The notes under the pieces are model-generated. The model saw only the letters and a program-made list of their open reading frames with translations. It did not search any database and was not told the DNA's origin. The position numbers were made by a program, and so were the translations under genes. DNA of 64,000 bases from an uncultured Bacteroidota bacterium (GTDB lineage: Bacteria > Bacteroidota > Ignavibacteria > Kryptoniales > JAKASW01): assembly GCA_963790995.1 (NCBI GenBank), contig CAWBQQ010000001.1:514034-578033 (forward strand), in the 5' to 3' direction. Shown here piece after piece: positions 3,240-58,139 of this stretch; the first letter of the stretch is position 1; each line of letters begins with the position of its first letter.

Positions 3240-4082
3240 TCAGTAACCGAGCGCTTTCAAATGTGCGGCAAGCAGCTCCGGATTCTCGTCGAGAAAATGC
3301 CGGGCAAAAAGCCGTGCCCTCTGAACCTCCGATAAATCGATCTCTGAATAAATAATGTCCTCATCGAATAATTTTACTTTCGAGATTATTTCACCATGCG
3401 GGGACACAACTTCCGAGCCGCCCCAAAAGTTTACTCCATCCTCAAAACCGACGCGGTTTGCGAAGGCAAGATAGACGCTGAGCAAGCGAGCAAAACTCTT
3501 ATGCTGCTCGCTGTTGGCAACGTATCCGGAATATTCTTCCGAACCACCGGAAAGTCTCGTGGGGCTTGCCGCTGATGCAAGAATGAGCATCGCTCCTTGA
3601 ACGGCTAAAATGTAAGGAAGTGAAATGTGCCAGAGGTCTTCACAGATCAAGAGTCCAAGTCTGCCAAATTTTGTGTCGAATGCCATCACTTCCCTTCCGG
3701 GCAGAAAATATCTTTGCTCTTCAAAAATTCCGTAAGTGGGCAAATAAACCTTGTGATGAACGTGCTTGATCGTTCCATCTTCAAAATAGATTAAGCTATT
3801 TCTTATCGCGCCGCTCGCATCCTTAATTATCGCGCCAACAGCAATAGAGATTTCCTTGCTGAGTAACTTCAGCGGATCGAACAAATTATCGCCGAGTTCC
3901 AGCGCAATTTCCGCATTCAAATCGCGAACGGAATATCCGGTTAAACTCAACTCAGGGAAAAGCACCAAGCGTGCTCCATTCTTCGCGGCTTGCTGCACAA
4001 TTTCAAAGTGGTGTTCAAGATTACATTTGATATCCCCAAGCTTCGGCCTGATTTGTCCGATTGCTAATGTGAACTTTGGCAA
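3240..4082 (-). CDS. Carbon-nitrogen hydrolase family protein (nitrilase/amidase-like)
   Basis: Glu-Lys-Cys triad context: FPELSLTGY, HHKVYLPTYG, LLICEDLWH. Confidence 0.85.
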   Translation of the reverse strand: MPKFTLAIGQIRPKLGDIKCNLEHHFEIVQQAAKNGARLVLFPELSLTGYSVRDLNAEIALELGDNLFDPLKLLSKEISIAVGAIIKDASGAIRNSLIYFEDGTIKHVHHKVYLPTYGIFEEQRYFLPGREVMAFDTKFGRLGLLICEDLWHISLPYILAVQGAMLILASAASPTRLSGGSEEYSGYVANSEQHKSFARLLSVYLAFANRVGFEDGVNFWGGSEVVSPHGEIISKVKLFDEDIIYSEIDLSEVQRARLFARHFLDENPELLAAHLKALGY

Positions 4083-4247
4083 AATGTGCTCCGATTATTT
4101 TTTACGCTATGCATTCCCGATTATTCAGATTTAACGGCTGAGACCGCCGTGCCTTGGCAAGCCTACCTTCAAATAGTTACGGTCTCTTTGCGCCGTACCC
4201 ATTTTCGGCGTCAACGATGTTCGAAACTATAAGCGAAACAGTCAAAA

Positions 4248-4697
4248 CTATTCCTCTAAAACATCGTTCGGAAGCTCCTCCTGCTCTCCGGCCACCGGCG
4301 GCAATTTGCTTTCCAACACCTCGCCGACTTCTGCAAGCGATGTCTTTAGGCCGTGGTAGAAATTACTCTTAGAAAAATGTTCCGTCAATTTTCCTGCAAT
4401 ATTTGTCCAAAATTCTTCGGGAAGGACGGAGATGATTCCGCGGTCGGCAAGCAATTCGAATTTTCTCTCGTTAAGAAGAATGAAGACAAGAATTCCCGTG
4501 CCGAGTTTCGTTTTGTTAATTCCGAGTGTCCCGAACTCGAGTTCTGCTACCTGGCGCGCCGTCAGCTTTCGTTCACTCCAGTGCTTTCTATGCCGTACCA
4601 CTATGCGAATCTCGGCGCTCGTTTTCTTCTCGATCTCGGCGATTTGCCCGCTGAGCTGGTGAAGCTCGATTTTTGTCAGAATTTTGTGTCGAATCAT
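4248..4697 (-). CDS. TPM-domain (TLP18.3/Psb32-like) protein
   Basis: EIRIVVR...[21 protein letters not shown] is typical of the TPM_phosphatase fold. 4-nt overlap with the upstream DAHP synthase gene. Confidence 0.7.
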
Positions 4698-5713
4698 AAA
4701 GAGAAACTCCTGTTAAAAACCGGAGCGATCTTCCTGAGCTTTTCCGTCAGCTCCGCAAACCTATCCGGTCGAAGCGACTGCCTGCCGTCCGACAACGCAT
4801 TCTCCGGGTGCGGATGCACTTCTACTAATAGTCCATCAGCCCCTGCGGCAACTGCCGCCAATGCCATCGGGGTGACAAGCTCCCAGCTTCCCGTACCATG
4901 GCTCGGATCGACTATCACGGGAAGGTGCGACAAATGTTTGACCATCGGGACGGCGTTCAAATCGAGTGTGCTCCTGGTGTAAGTCTCAAAGGTCCTGATT
5001 CCTCGCTCGCACAACACGATGTTGTAATTTCCCTGGGACGCTATATACTCTGCAGCCATCAGCCATTCTTCTATCGTCGCCGCCAAACCGCGCTTGAGAA
5101 GAACCGGTTTCCTGGTTCGTCCAACCGCCTCGAGTAATGAAAAGTTGTGCATGTTCCGCGCACCGATCTGAAGCATATCCGAGTATTCGCCGACGATCTG
5201 AACAGTTTCCGTATCTTTGACCTCGGTCACGACGCCCAGGTTGAATTTATCAGCCGCTTCGCGGAGATATTTTAGTCCTTCTTCTTTCAAACCCTGGAAT
5301 GAATACGGAGAAGTCCTCGGCTTGTAAGCGCCCCCCCGCAGGATTTTGGCACCTTGAGACTTCACAAATTCTGCCGTCTCCATGATTTGTGACTTACTTT
5401 CGACGGAACATGGACCGGCCATCATAACCAATTCTTCTCCGCCAATATCGACGTTCTTCAAACGAATTACCGTATCTTCCGGTTTCACATCGCGGCTGAC
5501 AAGCTTATACGGCTGGCTTACCGGAATGCACTCGACAACTGCGGGCAAATTCGAGAAGATACTTTGGTCAACAATTCCTTTATTGCCGGTAATTCCGATC
5601 GCGATTCGGAGCGAGCCGGGAATCTCGTGCGGTGTCCAGCCCATCGAGCGTACTTTATCCTTGACTTGCTCGATTTGTTCATCCGTCGCATTTTTATCCA
5701 TTATTATTAACAT
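4694..5713 (-). CDS. aroF: 3-deoxy-7-phosphoheptulonate (DAHP) synthase, type I-beta with N-terminal ferredoxin-like regulatory domain
   Basis: GPCSVES...[19 protein letters not shown]...DPSHGTG motifs, 339 aa. Confidence 0.9.
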
Positions 5714-14430: not shown

Positions 14431-14650
14431 GGGTAGTGTCCTAATTTGATTTACGTTTCAGAACAAAAACGTTTAAACCGCAATGTGCCGCCTTTCGGCA
14501 TCCCACATTCCATAGACTATCGATGGTGAGCGGGAAACGCCACGATGCGCAAAGCTTATCATTGAAGGAACACTTGGCGAATCTTTGCGGTCTTGCGGTT
14601 AAGAAAGTCCTTTTGGGGTGTTGCAGAAGGTTGGAATTAGGACACCACGC
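14431..14650. mobile_element. MITE-like element, copy 1 (220 bp), with a nested hairpin module
   Basis: Terminal inverted repeats GGGTAGTGTCCTAATTTG ... CCAATTAGGACACCACGC (the right arm reads GCGTGGTGTCCTAATTGG on the opposite strand). Internal inverted repeat TTAAACCGCAA / TTGCGGTTAA. Second copy at 41967-42139. Confidence 0.6.
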
Positions 14651-33881: not shown

Positions 33882-34880
33882 CTAGTACTCGTCTTTGCCG
33901 GGTCTTGTCATCAAGTCACGAACGGCCTTCCGCGGATCCTTTCCGTTGAAGAGAACTTCATACACCTGTTCCATGATAGGCATCTCGACGCCGAATTTCT
34001 TTGCAAGCTGGTTCGCCGCCTTCGCCGTCGGAACTCCCTCGGCTACCATTTTGATTTCGTCCAAAACTTCATCCAACTTCCTACCGCCTGCGACTTGCTC
34101 GCCGACGAATCTATTCCTGCTGTACCGGCTCATGCAAGTGACGATCAAATCTCCCATGCCCGCAAGACCGGAAAATGTTTTATGATGCGAACCGAGAGTT
34201 TCTCCGAGTCTTGTTATCTCCACCATGCCGCGTGTCATCAATGCGGCTTTTGTGTTGTCGCCGTAGCCGGCACCATCGCTCATCCCCGCGGCTAATGCAA
34301 TGACGTTCTTCAGCGCCCCGCAAAGTTCGACGCCTTTCACATCCCTATTCAAATAAACTCTGAAATAAGAATTCATGAAAAGCTTCTGGACAAGCTCCGC
34401 GCTCTTTCTGTGGTGCGACGCGGCAACGATAGCCGTCGGCATTCTCCGGCTTACTTCTTCCGCATGACTCGGCCCGGAGAGAACCACATAATTTTCTAAC
34501 GGGCATTTTGCTAAAGATGATTGGACCACGTCCGACATCGTGCAAAGTGTCGCGGCTTCGATCCCCTTCGCTGTATTGACAAATAGTTTTTTCCGAAAAT
34601 CGAGGACAGAAATTTTCTTCAGTTGATCGCGGAGAAATTGAGAGGGAATGGAAGCGACAACGATGTCAGCAGAAGCAGAAGCAGCTTCGATGTCGAAAGT
34701 TATTTCAATCTCACGAGGGATTGTAACTCCGCGAAGATAAGTGCGATTTTCCCTCGTCTCCGAAATCTCACGGGCAAAATCTTCATTGTACGCCCAAAGT
34801 TTAACGCTTGCCCCATTATCAAGAAGAAGAATTGAGAGCGCCGTTCCCCAACCGCCGGCGCCAAGCACGGTGACATTCAT
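33882..34880 (-). CDS. gpsA: NAD(P)H-dependent glycerol-3-phosphate dehydrogenase
   Basis: VLGAGGWGTAL, GALKNVIALAAG. Confidence 0.93.
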   Translation of the reverse strand: MNVTVLGAGGWGTALSILLLDNGASVKLWAYNEDFAREISETRENRTYLRGVTIPREIEITFDIEAASASADIVVASIPSQFLRDQLKKISVLDFRKKLFVNTAKGIEAATLCTMSDVVQSSLAKCPLENYVVLSGPSHAEEVSRRMPTAIVAASHHRKSAELVQKLFMNSYFRVYLNRDVKGVELCGALKNVIALAAGMSDGAGYGDNTKAALMTRGMVEITRLGETLGSHHKTFSGLAGMGDLIVTCMSRYSRNRFVGEQVAGGRKLDEVLDEIKMVAEGVPTAKAANQLAKKFGVEMPIMEQVYEVLFNGKDPRKAVRDLMTRPGKDEY

Positions 34881-35572
34881 TTACCTGAGATAGTGCGCGT
34901 CTTTGATTTGTGGAAAAATTCTAATTCCCCGAGCCGATGCTCTTGTCCATGCAAAAGACGAGCTATATTTGAGCGATGATTGTATATCAAGAAAATTGAA
35001 ATCGCAATGCTGAAAAAAATCATCGAGTGGTAATATCTCGTCACGACTTCAAACACATTTGCCCTAACGAACATCGCGAGCGGGAAGGCGATTGCCGCAC
35101 TAACCGAACCGAGTGAAACATACTTTGAACTTGCGACGACTATTGCAAAAACGCCCGCGGCGATCGCGACCTCTATCGGCGCAATTCCTATCAACATGCC
35201 GGCTGCCGTGGCGATTCCCTTCCCACCTTTGAAGCCGGCGAAGACCGTCCATGTATGACCGAGAATCGCACTTATTCCTGCGATGATTTGGACCACTGTG
35301 AAATCTGAAAATGGCGTTCCATTGGTGAGCGGAAAATTGCCGAAAAATAACCGGGAAAGTACAACAGCCGCAAGAAAACCCTTCAACGCGTCAAACAAAA
35401 TCACAAATACTCCCGGCCCCCAACCGAGCACACGAATTACATTCGTGCCGCCCGCGTTTCCGCTCCCATAATTCCGTATGTCAATACCTCTTACGACTTT
35501 GGTAAGGATGATACTTGTCGGAATCGAACCGACTAAGAAACTCAAGAGCACCACAATAATAAGTGAAACCAA
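34877..35572 (-). CDS. plsY: Glycerol-3-phosphate acyltransferase
   Basis: GSGNAGGTNV and FKGGKGIATAAG motifs. 4-nt overlap with gpsA. Confidence 0.92.
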   Translation of the reverse strand: MVSLIIVVLLSFLVGSIPTSIILTKVVRGIDIRNYGSGNAGGTNVIRVLGWGPGVFVILFDALKGFLAAVVLSRLFFGNFPLTNGTPFSDFTVVQIIAGISAILGHTWTVFAGFKGGKGIATAAGMLIGIAPIEVAIAAGVFAIVVASSKYVSLGSVSAAIAFPLAMFVRANVFEVVTRYYHSMIFFSIAISIFLIYNHRSNIARLLHGQEHRLGELEFFHKSKTRTISGK

Positions 35573-35713: not shown

Positions 35714-36272
35714 TCACGAGTGCTTTTTATAGTGAAGGGCAACGACACCGGATTGGAAGGCTTTCAAACCGACAAAGTCGAGCGCAATCCTATCCTGCGG
35801 CTTCACGGTTTCGAATAACCGCGGTCCTTTTCCGGCAACGACCGGATGAATCACGAAATGATACTCGTCAATCAAACCGCGCTGTGAAAGTTGCGACGCA
35901 ATGCTCAAACTACCTGCGGAAATGTCTTTCCCGGGCTGCTGCTTCAGCCCGAGCACCTATTCCGCAATGTTTGCGCGCACGATTCTTGTATTGCTGCTCC
36001 CAGCTTGTTTCAATGCGGTGGAGAATACGACCTTGTTCGAGCGAATCGAACAGGCGAGCGAACTCATAGTTTGCTTGCGTGCCCGATTGGTTCCTGGCGA
36101 CATCGGGCCCATAGGGCACCATTAATTCATACGTCTTCCGTCCAAAGAGAAGAACATCCATGTCGCGTAGCAGCGTGGTGAAATACTCGAGGATCTCGTC
36201 GTCGGCGATCATGTCTGTGTGATTGCAATACCCGTCAGCGGTTATGTTTATGGCAAAAACGACTTTTCTCAT
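35714..36272 (-). pseudogene. Dihydrofolate reductase family (RibD C-terminal domain) gene with one frameshift and one in-frame TAG
   Basis: [15 protein letters not shown]...LLFGRKTYE in frame 1. [46 protein letters not shown]...[17 protein letters not shown] in frame 2. TAG at 35957-35959 sits where homologues have Glu. Confidence 0.8.
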
Positions 36273-36348
36273 AGACGTCCTTATATGATGTTATATAAAA
36301 AGCCCAGGCGCCGCTTGATCGAATTTCTAAGTACCGAGTACGGCGGCG

Positions 36349-36544
36349 GCGCATGTCGGTTAACGCATGATGGAACAAGGTCGTGCCATGCTCCTTCTTG
36401 ATATTATGCGCGCGCGATGAAGCGAGCACCATGATATATGCCGCCTTGCGGCATCCCGCGTACCACAACTATAATGATGAGCGGGACAATAATGTGGAGC
36501 GTCTTTCTTTCGCATGTTAGCCGACGCGCAACCCGTTGTTGGGA
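36349..36544 (-). repeat. Modular palindromic spacer A (contains the 80-nt core hairpin module at 36418-36499)
   Basis: Arms 36349-36369 and 36511-36529 are complementary (GCGC(AT)GTCGGTTAAC(GC)ATG vs CGCATGTTAGCCGACGCGC). End boxes are GGTTAAC and GTTGGGA on the plus strand. Confidence 0.6.
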
Positions 36545-36575
36545 CCTTGGTCTGCACATTTGCCATGACCAGAGC

Positions 36576-37052
36576 TCAATTTACTTCGAACTTCAGCGAA
36601 AATATTCCACAGTACTCATTCGCAGTCAGCACATACGGACCTGGAGCTGTCTGTGCGTCTCCAAGGTCTGCTATTGGGATGATGAAAGTGCATGGCCCAA
36701 TCTGTTGTGATTGATGCGGAACAATCGTATGGTCACTCCCGTGTTCGCAGGTTCCTCCTCTTTGGTACGACAATCTGGTCTTGCCAGTGTCGTCTTGAAC
36801 CTGCCACGAACCTACTGGATCGCAGTCAAAAACAAAATACTCCACGGTATCTTCTCCTGGGTTATATACCGTCGTCGTTGCGACCAAAGTGTCATGGATT
36901 CCATATGAGGTTCGCGGGATAGCAAATGTGAACTGCAAGCCATTGGATTTAAGAGTGTCAGTAATTGGCGATACGGGGTTAACCTTCGTGCAGCCAGCCC
37001 ATAATAGAAATAGACTTAGGATAACGATGGTACGCCTCATAAATACCTCCAT
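36576..37052 (-). CDS. Hypothetical lipoprotein (158 aa)
   Basis: Signal peptide with lipobox-like LWAGC. RBS GGAGG upstream. Confidence 0.6.
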   Translation of the reverse strand: MEVFMRRTIVILSLFLLWAGCTKVNPVSPITDTLKSNGLQFTFAIPRTSYGIHDTLVATTTVYNPGEDTVEYFVFDCDPVGSWQVQDDTGKTRLSYQRGGTCEHGSDHTIVPHQSQQIGPCTFIIPIADLGDAQTAPGPYVLTANEYCGIFSLKFEVN

Positions 37053-37134
37053 ATTATGTCCTTCAAACTACAAGGTTCTGTTTCGTTGCGTGTCGGCAGT
37101 CCACCACAAAGAAGCCGTGGCGCGTTTCGCGCCG

Positions 37135-37237
37135 TGAAGCGAGTACCATGATATATGCCGCCTTGCGGCATCCCGCGTGCCACATATATAATGATGAGCG
37201 GGATAATAATCGAGCATCGTGATTGCCGTTGTTATGT
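37135..37237 (-). repeat. Spacer B (core hairpin module plus the CCGTTGTT-type end)
   Basis: TGAAGCGAGTACCATGATATATGCCGCCTTGCGGCATCCCGCGTGCCACA...GATTGCCGTTGTTATGT. It lacks the other-end block seen in spacers A, C and D. Confidence 0.55.
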
Positions 37238-37260
37238 TAAGTTTTTGGCTGAATGTCATT

Positions 37261-37749
37261 CTAACATTCCTCTTTCTTTAGTTCCATCCTCACGGAGGCT
37301 CCTTGGCTGACGAGCCATTTTGCTTCGTAGCTTCCAGCGCCATCAGAAAAGTGGCCTGTGACAACAAAGCCGCCCTCAACTTGCTCAAGTGAGAAGAATT
37401 TGCTGTCAACAGAATCAAACCAGGGATCAAACATACAAGAAACATCAAGATTGACGGTATCGCCTCCAACTACTACGAACGCCTTGTCTAAAACTGTCAA
37501 AGGGGTTTCCCAATCTGTGCCAAAGTAAGGGCGTCCATCAATCAAACAGACACCTTTCCACCGATCCTTTGGAGGACCAACCACACAATACTTTATCGAA
37601 TGCTTTGTCGAGTCGAACCACGAAGCCTGCATATGGAGAACCACATCGGTGCTAAGCCGAATCACTGCAGAACGTTTGAGCTTAAACTCATGTCTGCCTC
37701 CCTGTTGAAGAAGGAGCAGAGTAAACAAGATTACTTTCAAATATCCCAT
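37261..37749 (-). CDS. Hypothetical secreted protein (162 aa)
   Basis: N-terminal hydrophobic segment and an ORF bounded by the repeat spacers. Confidence 0.55.
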   Translation of the reverse strand: MGYLKVILFTLLLLQQGGRHEFKLKRSAVIRLSTDVVLHMQASWFDSTKHSIKYCVVGPPKDRWKGVCLIDGRPYFGTDWETPLTVLDKAFVVVGGDTVNLDVSCMFDPWFDSVDSKFFSLEQVEGGFVVTGHFSDGAGSYEAKWLVSQGASVRMELKKEEC

Positions 37750-37770
37750 TGTGCCCTAGCCAAAAATTTC

Positions 37771-37811
37771 GCATAACGTCCTGCCGGACAGAGTCGTCCC
37801 GCGCTCCTTCT
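37771..37811 (-). repeat. Spacer B2, carrying only the GCATAACGTCCTGCC...TCGTCCCGCGCTCCTTCT block
   Basis: Near-identical block at 39016-39050 in spacer D (GCCTAACGTCCTGCC...TCGTCCCGC). Confidence 0.4.
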
Positions 37812-37854
37812 CCTATTATGTTCGCGCCATGTCCGCCTCCGATAATGGCACAGC

Positions 37855-38418
37855 TTACTTTTCAATATTAACTTCCTTAGCGACAAACGAGTATGATGCC
37901 ACAAGTTCCTTGAACGCGGGAAACGCGCTTTGGAAAGCCTCCTCTGTGCGTGCGCTTAAGACAATCATGGAAACAATCGTTTCTTCGTCAATATAAGCAA
38001 CGGCTTCGTGTTGCGAGTAGTCAAATATCCTCACAAACGCCTTTTTCCCATCCTTGGTCAGCAACGTTTCGGAGTCGGTGATTTCAATTCCAGGATGCTC
38101 AGTCTTAAATTGTTGCATGTCATACGCCATGACTTTGTCCACTGTCTCGTTGCCCTCGGTTGATTTGCTGGACGTGTTAGCATACATGACAGCTTCGGAC
38201 TCCCGCCAGCTGCCGCCTCGTGGATAAAAGACAGCATAGAGCCCATCGGGGACACCGCTTGAATTGTCGAGCACCCAGCCATGTGGCGCGGTTAGGAAAA
38301 ACGCATGGTCGCTGCCGTAAACGAGTCCTGTATTATAATCTGAACTATCTTGTGTTGCTTCCTGGCCAAATGCGATACCAACAAACAGCGTTAGAAAAAC
38401 TATACTTAACCTCTTCAT
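37855..38418 (-). CDS. Hypothetical secreted protein (187 aa)
   Basis: Signal peptide MKRLSIVFLTLFVGIAFGQ. RBS AAGGAG 6 nt upstream of the ATG. Confidence 0.6.
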   Translation of the reverse strand: MKRLSIVFLTLFVGIAFGQEATQDSSDYNTGLVYGSDHAFFLTAPHGWVLDNSSGVPDGLYAVFYPRGGSWRESEAVMYANTSSKSTEGNETVDKVMAYDMQQFKTEHPGIEITDSETLLTKDGKKAFVRIFDYSQHEAVAYIDEETIVSMIVLSARTEEAFQSAFPAFKELVASYSFVAKEVNIEK

Positions 38419-38448
38419 TATTTCTCCTTTATTTTTGTCAGCAATTGT

Positions 38449-38611
38449 AGCTAACTTCCACGGGAATCACGTCGTCGCACGCTCCTTCTTCATATGATGT
38501 GTGCGGCATGAAGCGAGCACCATGATATATGCCGCCTTGCGGCATCCCGCGTACCACATATACAATTATGAGCCGGATGGTAATCCAGAGTCGTGATTGC
38601 CGTTGTTGGGC
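38449..38611 (-). repeat. Modular palindromic spacer C (best attC-like geometry; core module at 38509-38590)
   Basis: In ORF orientation: GCCCAAC-AACGG-CAATCACGAC ... GACGTGATTCCCGTGGAA-GTTAGCT. It starts 10 nt after the upstream stop and ends 30 nt before the next ATG. Confidence 0.6.
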
Positions 38612-38621
38612 GCTCGTGCCA

Positions 38622-38978
38622 CTACTCGCACTCCATGATCATCATGATTACGGCGATCGGGAGATTTCCTTCTATAACATAAAGCCGTGTGCCTCGCGAG
38701 CAATCCTTGACATACTGTCCATCAAATTCATACAGGCGTGCACCACTGGAGTATTTCTTCATGTACTTGCCATCCCACTCCAGAACTCTCTTTCCGTCAT
38801 GGTACCGCTTCAAGTACTTGCCGTCCCATTCGTACTGTCTGGTTCCATCAGCATATGCCTTTATGTATTTGCCGTCAAACTGCGCAACTCTGACACCACC
38901 CGAATATTTCTTTAACTACTGGCCATCCCATTCAAAAATCCTCGCGCCACGAGAATACTATTTGATATAACTACTCAT
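38622..38978 (-). pseudogene. 17-residue-repeat protein gene with two in-frame TAG codons
   Basis: MSSYIK-TAG-YSRGARIFEWDGQ-TAG-LKKYSGGVRVAQFDGKYIKAYADGTRQYEWDGKYLKRYHDGKRVLEWDGKYMKKYSSGARLYEFDGQYVKD... TAGs at 38958-38960 and 38916-38918. The second replaces the repeat-conserved Tyr. Confidence 0.6.
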
Positions 38979-39015
38979 GAATGCCTACCAGTTTTGCTGA
39001 GTGTGCTGGCATGAC

Positions 39016-39198
39016 GCCTAACGTCCTGCCCAAAAGAGTTCGTCCCGCTTGTCGCTATAAATATTGCTTGGCATCCACGAAGCGGCAAAGCTGGATGAAG
39101 CGAGCACCATGATATACGCCGCGTCGCGGCATCCTGTATACCACATACATAACGATGAGCGGGACGATAATTGAGCGCCTTCCTTGCGTTTTTTACGC
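39016..39198 (-). repeat. Modular spacer D (diverged core module at 39096-39177)
   Basis: Ends in ORF orientation with GGCAGGAC-GTTAGGC. Inner pair TCGTCCCGCT / AGCGGGACGA. The core hairpin is changed to GCCGCG-AC-GCGGC. Confidence 0.55.
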
Positions 39199-39206
39199 GA
39201 AGTTCG

Positions 39207-39854
39207 CTAATGGCCATTTAGTAGACTGTCAGAGCTTGGGGGATAGGAACCCCATGCCTCGTGTTGCCAATCGTAGTTACCAACAGTTGGCATTTTTCCG
39301 TTCAGCTTAGCCTTTGAGAAGATATAAAAGTCAATATATTTGGTGTTTGCATCCCAATGGGCCTGAAACTGCTTTACAGAGGCAGCGATGTTGTCGTGCG
39401 AGAAATAATTACGATAATCCATGTAGACCCTATCGTTGTAGTGTGAAACGACTTTTACTATGTTTGTGTCTGAGTCAAGAGTGTAAACCACTACCGTGGG
39501 CGGTCCCGCTTCAAGGCTCACGAACAGGGAATCATCGGAATCATAATGGGTCTCAATGACTTGGTTCCTTTGATAGGCGAACGTGACGTAGGGCGTAAAA
39601 TCAGCCTCTCCACAGTTGCACGTGTGGCCGTGGTCCGTGAACCTGATAGATTGGACGCGGTGCTTGCTGTCGACCTTCTCGACAACGTAGTATCGAGTTT
39701 CAGGAGTTAGAGCAATATCCCATTGGGTGAGCACAGGATCACTGTCGGTATTGGAGAAGGCGTGATAATATGTTCGAACCTGCGCCCGCGTAGCGGATGA
39801 AGCAACCAAGAAAGCGAGTGTGAATAAAGCTAGCTTCAGTATTCGGCTACTCAT
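39207..39854 (-). CDS. Hypothetical secreted protein (215 aa)
   Basis: Signal peptide MSSRILKLALFTLAFLVASSATRA from ATG 39854. The ORF track start is 39872. Confidence 0.6.
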   Translation of the reverse strand: MSSRILKLALFTLAFLVASSATRAQVRTYYHAFSNTDSDPVLTQWDIALTPETRYYVVEKVDSKHRVQSIRFTDHGHTCNCGEADFTPYVTFAYQRNQVIETHYDSDDSLFVSLEAGPPTVVVYTLDSDTNIVKVVSHYNDRVYMDYRNYFSHDNIAASVKQFQAHWDANTKYIDFYIFSKAKLNGKMPTVGNYDWQHEAWGSYPPSSDSLLNGH

Positions 39855-40028
39855 CTTTTCCTCGTTGAACAATTAGCGAATTGCGTATAACTACTGGAAA
39901 AACGCACCTAAGTATGTTTTTGTCCTTAATGAACGCCTCTCCTCTACTCGATCGTAGACCTGACTTCATGCTTTCCCTCACTCTCAAATTTATCCCTTCC
40001 ATCCATGAAATTCAAATCGCGTAACATG

Positions 40029-40526
40029 TTAGGTCACTTCTTCTTTAGATGCCCATCTTGACGGATTGTCTATGATGTATTTGCGTGTGCGATTCAATTC
40101 ATCGTCGTTCCGAATTATATGTTCATAGTAATTGCGCTGCCAAACGGAGACGCCGCCTGCACCACGTATTTCATTAATGCGGCGTGCGGAAAATGTTTTG
40201 AATGCTCGAACAATTTCCGATAATGGATAATGTTTATATGATAACGCATTTGTAGGGGCAGGTTTCAAACCTGCCCCTACCATGGTTGATTCATCATCAT
40301 CCATAATGATAATTATTCCATGTACATGATTCGGCATCACGACAAATTCATCTAATTCAACGTTCGGATAATGATTAGGCAAATCAACCCACGCATCTTG
40401 TACAATTAAGCCAAATTCGTTTAATCGCATTTCCATGTCGATAATTTCACCAAAGATACATTCGTGTTTGAATGCATCAATCGTTACAAAATATCCACCT
40501 TGCTGTGAATAATCGTACCCCTTCAA
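40029..40526 (-). CDS. REP-associated tyrosine transposase (RAYT; IS200/Y1-transposase-like HUH enzyme)
   Basis: HUH motif MPNHVHGII and catalytic Tyr context WQRNYYEHIIR. 165 aa, single gene with no tnpB. Confidence 0.85.
   Translation of the reverse strand: MKGYDYSQQGGYFVTIDAFKHECIFGEIIDMEMRLNEFGLIVQDAWVDLPNHYPNVELDEFVVMPNHVHGIIIIMDDDESTMVGAGLKPAPTNALSYKHYPLSEIVRAFKTFSARRINEIRGAGGVSVWQRNYYEHIIRNDDELNRTRKYIIDNPSRWASKEEVT
40252..40280. repeat. REP-type perfect palindrome inside the RAYT ORF
   Basis: GTAGGGGCAGGTTT-C-AAACCTGCCCCTAC with 14-nt arms. It encodes VGAGLKPAPT between the HUH and Tyr motifs. Confidence 0.7.
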
Positions 40527-40582: not shown

Positions 40583-40611
40583 GTACGGGCGGGTTTAAAA
40601 CCCGCCCATAC
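40583..40611. repeat. REP-type palindrome, second copy, 57 nt upstream of the RAYT start
   Basis: GTACGGGCGGGTTT-A-AAACCCGCCCATAC. The A>G change in one arm is matched by T>C in the other relative to the first copy. Confidence 0.7.
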
Positions 40612-40618
40612 CATCATA

Positions 40619-41350
40619 TCACTTCTTCACCTTCTTTGCTGCTTTCGTTGCGGCAGCCTTTTTCGGCGCGCTGCGCTGCGCCTTCGTCTTCGTGGTGCGG
40701 GCGGCTATTCCAAGCTTCGTCAGCGCCCCTTTGTTATTCGCCAGCGCTATCTTCGCTATGTTGATGTACTGGCTCATCCACGTCTTCAATTCACCGACCG
40801 CATCCTTCTTGCCCGACGTCGATTGTTTCGCCGTGCCTTTCGCCTTGACTTCGGCGTCATACTCGCTCTCGAAATCGAGTATCTTCTGCTTTTCGGATGT
40901 CAGCGTTGCAACGCTGTAATTATACTTCGCAAGCGCGGTCTTGATCTCGTCATCCGCCAATGCGTTGTTGAAGAGCGTCTTGCCCGATTCAATGAACCCC
41001 GCAATGGTTCGCGGCATTTCGCCATTCAATCCTAATTTCACCAATTGCTCTTTCTGACCCCTGAATTCCGTGCGCGCGATTTTTGCAAGCGATTCGTAAG
41101 CCGTCTCCGCTGTCTTTCTCAGCGACTTCGCTTGATCCGTCTCTTCCTCTTCCGCACCTTTGGTTTTTTCCCGCGTGTCAACCGAATCGTTTGCGGCGTC
41201 CAACAGCGCCTGCCCCTGGTTCAGCTTGTCGGTAGTGTAGCCATAATTACCTACTGCCGCCTGGATTTCTTCGTCCGAAAGTGAATTTTTGATGATCGTT
41301 CCGCACCTTTTCAGGTATGCGGCAATTGCGTTCGATAGTCGTTTTGCCAT
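40619..41350 (-). CDS. Hypothetical protein with internal duplication and Lys/Ala-rich basic tail
   Basis: Two repeats of about 110 aa (SDEEIQAAVGNYGYTTDKL... / ADDEIKTALAKYNYSVATL...). C-terminus TKTKAQRSAPKKAAATKAAKKVKK. Confidence 0.6.
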   Translation of the reverse strand: MAKRLSNAIAAYLKRCGTIIKNSLSDEEIQAAVGNYGYTTDKLNQGQALLDAANDSVDTREKTKGAEEEETDQAKSLRKTAETAYESLAKIARTEFRGQKEQLVKLGLNGEMPRTIAGFIESGKTLFNNALADDEIKTALAKYNYSVATLTSEKQKILDFESEYDAEVKAKGTAKQSTSGKKDAVGELKTWMSQYINIAKIALANNKGALTKLGIAARTTKTKAQRSAPKKAAATKAAKKVKK

Positions 41351-41538
41351 TTTTGACTCCTTCTTAAAAAGAATTTACTTCGGTTCATTTTAGTTTGATT
41401 TTAGCCGTCCCCGCATCGACGCGGCGGCGGAGTGAGACCTACCTCTTCATTGACCTATTTTCCCTTAAAATATGCCTAAATCGACACATTCCGATTTAAG
41501 CACGTTGTTTTTTGCCTGATTAACCCTCCTTTCCATCT

Positions 41539-41748
41539 GGTGCGGCTCCCATTGTGTTCGGTGCAGCTCCCATTCTGTATGGTGCATGTTCCATCGCGTT
41601 CGGCGCGGCTCCCATTCTGTTTGGTGCATCTTCCATCGCGTCAGGCGCAGCTTTCATTTTGTCCGGTGCACGTCGCATCGCATTCGGTGCATCTCCCATT
41701 TTCTCCGGTGCATGTCTCATCGCGTTTGGTGCATCTCCCTTTGAATTG
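41539..41748. repeat. Tandem repeat, 21 nt x 10
   Basis: Units GGTGCRNCTCCCATNNNGTTN. Open in at least three frames. On the minus strand it reads the heptad AP(N/D)xMxx within ORF 41520-41900. Confidence 0.85.
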
Positions 41749-41966
41749 AACACCGCCGCATCGATGACATTGTGGCACTTCGGAATGTCATTGCATCTAG
41801 CTCTTGAAGAGGAAGCGAAGCCATGCCTCGCTGCCGCCGTTCCCTGATACATACTGTGCAGCCACGATGTTAATTTACGAGATGGATATGGCAAATGCAA
41901 ACAAAAGATAGTGGATCGGTTTGGTTCTCTTTTGTAAAGCTGCGGTTAAACCGCAAAGGACAAACC

Positions 41967-57680: not shown

Positions 57681-57706
57681 ACTCCTACTTTTGATTTAGT
57701 AGGAGT
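57681..57706 (-). promoter_or_regulatory. SD-sequestering, terminator-like hairpin immediately 5' of the dynamin-like gene
   Basis: Minus strand: ACTCCTAC-taaatcaaaa-GTAGGAGT-TTTTATTTT-ATG. The only AGGAG lies in the 3' arm of the stem. Confidence 0.4.
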
Positions 57707-58139
57707 CATCAACCGCTAAACTTTGCGATAATTCTTCGGCGAACTCCATCGCCGTACTGCAATTTAATAACCAGCCGGAAATCGAACAAGCGCCGCAAAA
57801 TGTCGAAGGTCAAAAAGCAAAAGTCATGAAAGCCATTAGCTATTAAAGTTTGAAAGCGGGAGTTAATTTTGAATTCCGATGTTCGCGAGATTCGAGCAGC
57901 GGCGTCTTGGAAGGTTGAGACGTTTTCTTGGCATCACGTAAACGATCGGGGCAGGATCGACAGGTCTCGAGTCAACGTTCGAGACGGCCGAGTAAAAAGT
58001 GAATGCGATGAAAAACACCAGTGCTCTCATGTGCCTAATTAAAATCACGATGTTTTTATTTGAAAGTCGAGGATTCAATCGGCGGGGATGGCACAAACGG
58101 ATGTCATTGATTCGAATCAATGGTTTATTAAATTTCGAC

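Follow-up and report, generated by a model that had tools for sequence, protein, structure and literature searches.

A probable degraded integron-type gene cassette array in a Candidatus Kryptoniota chromosome and its lineage-specific family of attC-like sites

Chromosomal integrons, and the clusters of attC sites lacking an integrase (CALINs) that the IntegronFinder definition recognizes, are arrays of co-oriented small open reading frames (ORFs), mostly of unknown function, each accompanied by an imperfect palindromic recombination site, as in the Vibrio cholerae repeat (VCR) arrays of Vibrio. The integron integrase IntI is held to recombine folded single strands through the gain of the I2 helix, a domain described as the basis of attC recombination, and a lack of intermediates in the evolution of IntI has been noted in the field (PMC7790495). 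Canonical attC hairpins carry extrahelical bases that lie on the R''-L'' arm, near L'' (PMC5027507), and integrons have already been reported in Chlorobi and Ignavibacteriae (PMC4889954; PMC9024848). Here we describe a stretch of 64,000 nucleotides (nt) from a Candidatus Kryptoniota chromosome (contig CAWBQQ010000001.1; hereafter, the window), in which five co-oriented repeat elements lie between small minus-strand ORFs at 36.3-39.2 kb, upstream of the gene plsY. We consider it very probable that this region is a degraded integron-type gene cassette array, that is, a CALIN, and we name the lineage-specific family of attC-like sites to which the repeats belong K-attC. Our literature search found nothing on integrons in Kryptoniota or on I2-less recombinases with cassette arrays; its coverage was incomplete, and an earlier description is possible.

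K-attC arrays share with chromosomal integrons and CALINs the basic layout of co-oriented small ORFs, each with an imperfect palindromic site whose sequence is specific to the lineage and whose terminal boxes match, or nearly match, RYYYAAC and GTTRRRY. They also share a structure that is kept by compensatory changes, a hybrid 3' box whose TTRRRY part comes from the next cassette, cassettes of the toxin-antitoxin and defense types (HicAB in locus L017; AbiGi, TIR, and methyltransferase genes in L111 and L109), and pseudogenes and broken sites where the integrase is missing. An attC or CALIN identity had been proposed for the window in an earlier interpretation made without database searches (hereafter, the sequence-only reading). 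The present analysis supports that proposal with four corrections, which concern the 5' box of one spacer, the lengths of the elements, the arm that carries the unpaired bases, and the nature of the recombinase, which lacks I2.

The similarity among the spacers exceeds chance: four copies each extend over approximately 125 nt, their 40-nt core gives four matches against 0.00 expected, and nhmmer E-values range from 1e-34 to 1e-37. The wider family was found by way of L017, a relative with one element, 113 nt long, immediately upstream of plsY. The part common to L017 and the window provided the search pattern TCGCTTCA-N17-23-GAAGGAGC-N5-ACGAC, which retrieved 20 metagenome contigs from the Joint Genome Institute (JGI), 18 of them with true copies; L096 and L097 were discarded as chance pattern matches without a profile match. 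An exact scan of genome and metagenome contig collections for the window-type core GGATGCCGCNNNGCGGCNTATATCATGGT found none; this core belongs to an optional module rather than to the site itself. Outside the window, approximately 70 non-redundant profile matches were obtained in 24 loci of soil metagenomes and Kryptoniota genomes, comprising the 18 JGI contigs, four Kryptoniota loci upstream of plsY (L017, L024, L026, and the weak L010), L109, and L111; L110, L112, and L113 (DATJAY010000036.1) are repeats of L109 and L104 and were not counted anew. The family profile scores exactly five times in the window, and each of these copies is a minus-strand element within the array. The copies elsewhere likewise form co-oriented arrays (12 in L111, 7 in L104, 6 in L105, and 4 each in L090 and L093) with a spacing of 0.6-1.2 kb and one ORF, occasionally two, per interval, and the gene content between them is unrelated from array to array. 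Scattering of the copies among ordinary genes, which the sequence-only reading had named as evidence that would refute it, was not seen: across the window and the 24 loci, every match covering most of the profile lies in a co-oriented array.

A typical K-attC element is 112-117 nt long (family range 95-185 nt; the attC range used for comparison was about 57-141 nt). It begins with a 5' box (R''; G[CGT][CA]TAAC), followed by 2 nt, an 11-nt arm, A, CG, and a conserved center (GCTCGACATTTGTATA...TCGCTTCATGG), and it continues with a 7-bp hairpin (loop ACATTATATAAAGAAGGA), CG, A, the complementary 11-nt arm, 5 nt ending in AC, and a 3' box (R'; GTTA[GT][GC][CT]). Over 24 sites, conservation of the TAAC and GTTA parts of the boxes is 90% or more. 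Within the inner hairpin, the 18-nt loop (alignment columns 65-83; in the window, for example, 38480-38490) holds a nearly invariant Shine-Dalgarno-like AAGAAGGAG, approximately 40 nt before the 3' box and too far upstream to serve the next ORF.

Covariation was assessed on 24 complete sites, which were aligned with a structure specified by hand, and the pairs were counted and compared with 500 shuffles. In this alignment, pairing holds for 85% of the cells, double (compensatory) changes occur in 14 of 27 pairs, and the observed score was reached by none of the shuffles; sliding the partner columns by 1-3 positions left only 29-44% of the cells paired. There are at least eight arm sequences, each with its perfect complement (e.g., GCCGGACAAAG/CTTTGTCCGGC, GGCAATCACG/CGTGATTGCC, and GATGGAACAAAG/CTTTGTTCCATC), and typical sites, folded as single-stranded DNA (ssDNA), adopt the same architecture as the alignment with z-scores of -3.5 to -5.2 and none of 200 shuffles as stable. 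The claim that structure is kept while sequence drifts thus holds for the arms of the 24-site alignment; in the window itself, only one site (site C) keeps its closing stem. RNAalifold recovered the inner hairpin alone from the family alignment, because chimeric copies blur the arms. In these chimeras, the 5' and 3' arms are of different types (L101 1050-1165, L103 1602-1709, L104 7074-7189, and site B of the window, 37092-37237), which suggests homologous recombination between sites via their conserved centers as a route to array reshuffling or inactivation.

The strongest evidence comes from the relation between neighboring sites. Integron crossover takes place between the G and the TT of the 3' box. 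The TTRRRY part is thereby assigned to the cassette that follows, whose own 5' box it complements. Accordingly, unit boundaries had been expected to coincide with a GTTRRRY-like box, and K-attC arrays bear this out: between site n and its upstream neighbor n-1, the 5' box of the former complements the 3' box of the latter at 7/7 positions in 14 of 22 adjacent pairs (mean 6.59). Against the 3' box of its own site, it reaches 7/7 in only 6 of 35 cases, and the mean there (5.4) is the same as the all-against-all background. None of 20,000 permutations reached the observed complementarity between neighbors, and even rare variants match exactly in L090 (GTTAGAC followed by GTCTAAC, and GTTAGCG by CGCTAAC). 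In 33 adjacent pairs (from L090, L093, L095, L100, L101, L105, L108, L109, L111, and L112), complementarity runs to approximately position 18 past the G, and position 11 is never complementary, being C.A on the coding strand and G.T on the other; this mismatch could be a strand-choice signal that replaces extrahelical bases. Beside position 11, many sites also have a length difference of 1 nt (TTCG opposite TCAT). A canonical attC array, L006, obeys the same boundary rule and served as a positive control. It lies at 1100-9000 of contig Ga0573185_23533 (JGI 3300057060), and its sites read CCTAAC-..GCGGCT(G)CACCTG(A)CGCCGC...GCGGCGCAGGTGAGCCGC..GTTAGGC, with the bulged bases on the 5' arm. As read from the sequences, the boundary signature is the decisive footprint of cassette exchange by crossover at G/TT.

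Intact K-attC arrays whose 5' end was recovered are headed by a recombinase gene. Full-length copies lie 5' of the arrays in L104/L112, L109/L110, and L111; in L104, the order is groEL, a 300-aa tyrosine recombinase on the cassette strand, and then the array. The homolog P0054 (67% identity), on the closed chromosome of a Kryptoniota relative (L111; OY969888.1), is followed by 12 co-oriented sites within 10 kb, and sites likewise lie downstream of the homolog P0046 (79% identity) in L109 and L110. In L106, the C-terminal part of the recombinase (70% identical) stands upstream of the site, and in L017, a 37-aa N-terminal remnant directly precedes the single site upstream of plsY. The linkage is independent in four loci, with the 37-aa remnant in a fifth, and the recombinase is co-oriented with the array that it heads. 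Its best relative of solved structure is VchIntIA (PDB 2A3V; E=1e-40 and 4e-42), and it shares with IntI a Phage_int_SAM_4 N-terminal domain, the catalytic residues R-K-H-R-H-Y, and an adjoining box of the GTTRRRY type. This box lies 60-70 nt after the recombinase stop codon in L104, L109, and L111; ahead of it stand two copies of a short motif, and the arrangement appears attI-like. In L104, the box (GTTAGCT, about 60 nt after the stop) is the exact complement of the R'' box of the first site (AGCTAAC), as is GTTATGC in L111 (first-site R'' GCATAAC); L109 carries GTTAGCT.

From these observations, we infer that the recombinase catalyzes cassette exchange and that its substrate is folded single-stranded DNA. 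Each unit would comprise one promoter-less small ORF and the folded K-attC recombination site after it, and in intact relatives the array starts directly 3' of the co-oriented tyrosine recombinase gene and the attI-like site. Cassettes would be excised and inserted by a single crossover at G/TT of the 3' box, and the first bases of a cassette (TTRRRY and approximately 12 nt) would thus be complementary to the sequence around its own 5' box. On circularization, the two halves would rejoin as one hairpin of approximately 150 nt, in which an extended R-box stem with the invariant C.A mismatch is followed by an asymmetric 2 x 5 nt internal loop, a stem of 11-13 bp with variable sequence and conserved pairing, and a conserved branched tip. 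In the window, the recombinase is missing, a gene for a transposase of the RAYT type (tyrosine transposase associated with repetitive extragenic palindromic [REP] sequences) stands in its place, and the surviving ORFs would be expressed as ordinary genes.

The five window sites (Table 1) are considerably more decayed than their relatives. The sequence-only reading had placed seven box-like heptamers in the spacers, and all seven occur at those positions; one of them, TCCCAAC (36538-36544), was mistaken for the 5' box of site A, which by homology with approximately 70 family members is GGCTAAC. Of the 5' boxes, three are intact and two survive as remnants; the 3' box is missing from site B and present in the other four sites, and several boxes depart from the strict RYYYAAC/GTTRRRY consensus at one position. 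The box GTTACGC at the upstream end of the array is of the crossover type, with the complement GCGTAAC, and opens the 221-aa cassette. Taken singly, the window spacers do not fold significantly (z=-0.9 to -1.6), and such single-sequence folds would have been misleading without the wider family. Only site C combines both boxes with pairing arms (ACGG.AATCACG/CGTGATT.CCGT), which form a closing stem in both the minimum free energy and the centroid ssDNA folds; its arm type, GGCAATCACG/CGTGATTGCC, also occurs in L105_2914. Site D (z=-1.6) has an alternative stem, TCGTCCCGC/GCGGGACGA. Site X, which sits in a short spacer (37750-37854, 105 nt), matches profile positions 54-115 (E=5e-9). In site B, a 5' arm of the GGCAATCACG type faces a 3' arm of the CTTCTTTG type; therefore, the two cannot pair, and the ssDNA fold has no closing stem. 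The inner arms of site A have decayed, and its flanks, GCGCGTCGG/CCGAC(AT)GCGC, still pair; its 5' context, GCGCGTCGGCTAAC, is identical to that of L104_6040, and its 3' arm, CGACCTTGTTCCATCATGCGTTA, is homologous to that of L017. The weak folds, the unmatched arms of site B, and the truncation of site X indicate decay.

Table 1. Features of the array region in the 64,000-nt window (positions and strand of the window; boxes are read in the orientation of the array).
Feature	Position	Strand	Details
RAYT-like Y1 transposase gene	40029-40526	-	Pfam Y1_Tnp E=2e-6; NCBIfam REP_Tyr_transpos 58.8 bits, below cut-off 80
Upstream array boundary	40019-40034	-	ACCTAAC (40028-40034) overlaps RAYT stop, then AT, then GTTACGC (40019-40025)
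Cassette ORF, 221 aa	39207-39872	-	N-terminal signal-like sequence, no known family; ORF list
Site D, 183 nt	39016-39198	-	Degraded 5' box GCGTAAAAAAC (39188-39198); 3' box GTTAGGC (39016-39022); H1-H2 39107-39164
Decayed gene of 51-nt (17-aa) repeats	38622-38974	-	63-aa ORF left at 38622-38813; direct repeats
Site C, 163 nt, best preserved	38449-38611	-	5' box GCCCAAC (38605-38611); 3' box GTTAGCT (38449-38455); H1-H2 38520-38577; profile E=4e-16
Cassette ORF, 187 aa	37855-38418	-	Secreted protein family, 43 homologs; homolog search
Site X, internally deleted fifth copy, about 85 nt	37771-37855	-	5' box only AGCT (37852-37855); intact 3' box GTTATGC (37771-37777)
Cassette ORF, 162 aa	37261-37749	-	Signal-like N-terminus, no known family; ORF list, Pfam/NCBIfam scans
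Site B	37092-37237	-	5' box ACATAAC (37231-37237); no 3' box; H1-H2 37146-37203
Cassette ORF, 158 aa	36576-37052	-	Lipoprotein-type signal (LWAGC), no known family; ORF list, Pfam/NCBIfam scans
Site A, 165 nt	36358-36522	-	5' box GGCTAAC (36516-36522); 3' box GTTAACC (36358-36364); H1-H2 36429-36486
RibD_C (dihydrofolate-reductase-like) pseudogene	35714-36272	-	Two overlapping frames; Pfam RibD_C E=2e-10; no site after it
Boundary, array start to site D			GTTACGC (40019-40025) to GCGTAA[AAAA]C, the expected box with an A-run insertion
Boundary, site D to site C			GTTAGGC to GCCCAAC, 6/7 complementary (GCCCAAC to the 3' box of its own site, 4/7)
Boundary, site C to site X			GTTAGCT to remnant AGCT (start of AGCTAAC, complement of GTTAGCT)
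Boundary, site X to site B			GTTATGC to ACATAAC, 6/7 complementary

No tyrosine recombinase was detected in the window, in agreement with the earlier designation as a CALIN: tblastn of the family recombinase against the 64 kb gave a best E-value of 4 (not every window ORF was scanned against Pfam). Because of the weak folds, the partly broken sites, the two pseudogenes, and the missing recombinase, the window array is most likely a fossil CALIN, no longer mobile, that belongs to a non-canonical integron lineage.

Four of the five window sites contain a two-hairpin module of approximately 58 nt, composed of H1 (CCCGC...GCGGG) and H2 (ATGCCGC-AAG-GCGGCAT). An element length of 160-190 nt had been noted as above the usual attC range; this length is correct for sites C, A, and D, and it is not a property of the family, since the H1-H2 module accounts for most of the extra length. 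The module also occurs inside K-attC sites of L099 (1076-1117) and L112 (17538-17589), and alone at 14483-14535 of the window (minus strand), in a divergent intergenic region, where it is enclosed by its own inverted repeat, TTAACCGCAAG/CATTGCGGTTTAA. Part of the spacer had been reported to recur near 14.5 kb, and a partial copy does exist there (14477-14542, E=3e-6), but it matches the optional hairpin module and not the site. Possibly, H1-H2 is a mobile hairpin of small size that inserts into the loops of attC sites.

Several observations weigh against an integron-type reading. The alignment of the recombinase with VchIntIA falls into two blocks, between which VchIntIA residues 179/181-235/238 are skipped against 15-16 query residues, leaving approximately 42 residues missing at the position of the IntI-specific I2 domain, the mark of an integron integrase. 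In line with this gap, the recombinase scores below the cut-off of the integrase model TIGR02249 (214-222 bits against 265) and just above that of the XerA-type model NF040815 (226-229 bits against 220). The recombinase family is also very large (7624 proteins at E<=1e-40), with genomic contexts sampled for only a handful; the context of the homolog P0048 was uninformative, since its contig stops about 500 nt past the gene. In the K-attC hairpin, the 11-bp stem beside the R box has no bulge of the kind formed by attC extrahelical bases, and the unpaired excess lies on the R' arm, with 5 nt against 2 nt on the R'' arm; the attC-like hairpin with extra bases that had been described for the window is amended accordingly, its unpaired bases lying on the arm opposite to the canonical ones. 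Some family members have chimeric arms that do not pair (L101_1082 and L103_1632), and no presence/absence polymorphism was found among five contigs of the same species (L001-L005), which are 99.9-100% identical to the window; Logan contigs of the same species end inside the repeat. Neither circular cassettes nor products of recombination were seen. In further contrast to described integrons, K-attC R-box complementarity extends over approximately 18 nt rather than 7 and contains the invariant mismatch, conservation is concentrated in the center of the element rather than at its ends, some copies (those of the window, at 163-183 nt) are enlarged by an inserted hairpin module, and the recombinase gene is co-oriented with the cassettes rather than divergent. 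A co-oriented integrase is also found in the 'inverted integrase' integrons of Treponema and Chlorobium.

The absence of I2, the domain that adapts IntI to folded single strands, together with the pass of the XerA-type model and the lack of canonical extrahelical bases, would also suit duplex modules that an Xer-like recombinase moves at their terminal boxes, as in dif/pdif or integrative mobile elements exploiting Xer recombination (IMEX), with the hairpin serving another purpose, such as termination or stabilization of transcripts between cassettes; the box context GCGCATAA may also resemble the XerC arm of dif. We nevertheless regard such modules as an unlikely explanation. The complementarity of the first ~18 nt of each cassette to the flank of its own 5' box points to an R-box stem selected to pair within one molecule, which a pure duplex site does not need, and the adjacent 11-13 bp stem covaries freely in sequence, like an L box recognized by shape; in duplex form, neither box has a second inverted binding arm beside it, and the hairpins are not followed by the T-run that a terminator would need. 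The intramolecular complementarity of the R box and the neighboring stem therefore argues for a folded substrate over a duplex one. It is scarcely conceivable that the spacers are instead structured RNAs, such as processing, stabilizing, or regulatory motifs between operon genes that have no connection with DNA recombination. As is typical of RNAs, the elements combine a conserved center with a closing stem that covaries; several coding-strand pairs are G.U, and the inner-hairpin loop carries the conserved AAGAAGGAG. However, an RNA motif accounts for neither the boundary rule nor the finding that a recombinase and its matching attI-like box are constantly linked to the arrays, and it sits poorly with gene content that is unrelated across arrays. 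Rfam contains no family for the spacers (searched at the gathering threshold for the full 64 kb and at E<=10 for 35.5-40.1 kb), which rules out known ribozymes and riboswitches.

The competing explanation raised in the sequence-only reading was a bacterial interspersed mosaic element (BIME), in which the spacers are REP-like palindromes spread by the adjacent RAYT and serve as intergenic structural or regulatory elements. The window does resemble REP/BIME systems in its palindromic intergenic repeats, in the RAYT-like gene directly upstream of the array, which sits exactly where the array recombinase would be expected, and in the H1-H2 module that four sites share with the small palindromic element near 14.5 kb. 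Nonetheless, we judge this explanation to be highly improbable, because the RAYT has a different palindrome and the spacers have variable arms around a conserved center. The palindrome GGCGGGTTTAAAACCCGCC lies just upstream of the RAYT (40588-40606), with a variant, GGCAGGTTTGAAACCTGCC, inside its coding sequence (40257-40275); these are the only two copies of this type in the window, and the spacers contain none. Elements of 112-183 nt with a conserved center and covarying arms show the reverse of the REP pattern, the copies are all co-oriented and confined to arrays, other arrays have no RAYT, and intact arrays whose 5' end was recovered start with the tyrosine recombinase; a BIME/REP model also leaves the cassette-boundary signature without explanation. 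Two further candidates were rejected. The RAYT is not itself a cassette, as the required GTTAGGT is absent upstream of it, and the spacers do not qualify as miniature inverted-repeat transposable elements (MITEs), since their terminal arms differ between copies, their center is conserved, and they have no flanking duplication.

With the integron-type interpretation preferred, a broader proposal can be advanced tentatively, and with somewhat less than even confidence: Kryptoniota, and possibly many other bacteria with this family of 'tyrosine recombinase/integron integrase' proteins, would have an integron lineage whose integrase never had or has lost I2, whose attC sites have no extrahelical bases, and in which the choice of strand and orientation may instead be made by the mismatch in the extended R-box stem and the asymmetric loop. 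If so, this lineage would stand between Xer-type and IntI-type recombination, either as a naturally occurring intermediate or as a solution reached in parallel, with the hallmarks of integrons (one-ORF cassettes, boxes, covarying hairpins, the G/TT footprint, and an attI-like site) tied to an I2-less recombinase and to sites without extrahelical bases. Searches of the IntegronFinder type would overlook such arrays or list them as CALINs only. The K-attC family further suggests that surveys using an I2-specific integrase profile undercount integrons, and integrons would extend to the candidate phylum Kryptoniota. The K-attC sites and their linked recombinase make the need for I2 in cassette recombination directly testable on defined natural sequences, and the family is a promising test case for integron recombination without I2. 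For the window alone, less is gained: the orphan genes for secreted proteins and the pseudogenes beside plsY are accounted for by a fossil array.

The genes of the array are arranged as the sequence-only reading described them, that is, as six small co-oriented minus-strand ORFs that include two pseudogenes. Moving away from plsY (34877-35572), they are the RibD_C pseudogene, the 158-, 162-, and 187-aa ORFs, the 17-aa-repeat pseudogene (8 stop codons when 38622-38974 is translated in the frame of the 63-aa ORF), and the 221-aa ORF. The identification of a dfr-like gene is confirmed by the RibD_C match, whereas its status as a cassette is not: because intact RibD_C homologs sit just upstream of plsY in the relatives L019 and L022, the pseudogene may be either the last array unit or a native neighbor of plsY. 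The 221-aa ORF has no match in Pfam or NCBIfam, and none of the 158-, 162-, and 221-aa ORFs has a homolog in any fetched array. A homolog of the 187-aa ORF, P0008 (54% identity), is a bona fide cassette in the canonical attC array L006, with G/TTAGGC upstream and an attC with the R'' box GCCTAAC downstream. The 187-aa gene family is not exclusively cassette-borne, as homologs at L007 and L008 have no attC features and others also occur in ordinary contexts.

The genes plsY, gpsA, and larC assign the window to Candidatus Kryptoniota; metagenome-assembled genomes with PlsY proteins 75-90% identical to that of the window were found, and the plsY-gpsA-larC block is syntenic in approximately 20 relatives. 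The DNA upstream of plsY differs in every relative and often consists of runs of small co-oriented ORFs, and, as noted above, four relatives carry the element at this position; the locus is therefore not invariant among relatives, a point on which the cassette proposal had been left to stand or fall. The gap between gpsA and larC is a second variable spot of this conserved block, measuring 1.1-1.3 kb in most relatives (L013-L029), approximately 5 kb in L017, and approximately 55 nt in the window and L010.

In L017, the region upstream of plsY (3327-4500) comprises the 37-aa recombinase remnant, one K-attC site, four GC-rich hairpins (3930-4070), and HicB, followed by what appears by eye to be a decayed HicA gene; the region looks like the same integron platform after further reduction. 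Upstream of plsY in L022 there are other intergenic repeats, namely a 103-nt pair with 85% identity (4207-4309 and 5457-5559) and, at 4355-5698, four copies of a low-complexity block of the TTTAGAGTTTAGGATTTCG type, with several RibD_C paralogs nearby.

Elsewhere in the window, a PQLLE-family protein (NCBIfam, 163 bits) is encoded at 40619-41350 (minus strand). It adjoins an ORF at 41520-41900 (minus strand) with a degenerate repeat of approximately 8-9 aa (xAPNAMxxAP...); further ORFs overlap it in other frames and on both strands, a picture suggestive of a repeat region. At 57693-57762, the minus strand carries a fluoride riboswitch of the crcB motif (44.7 bits, gathering score 34, E=4e-9).

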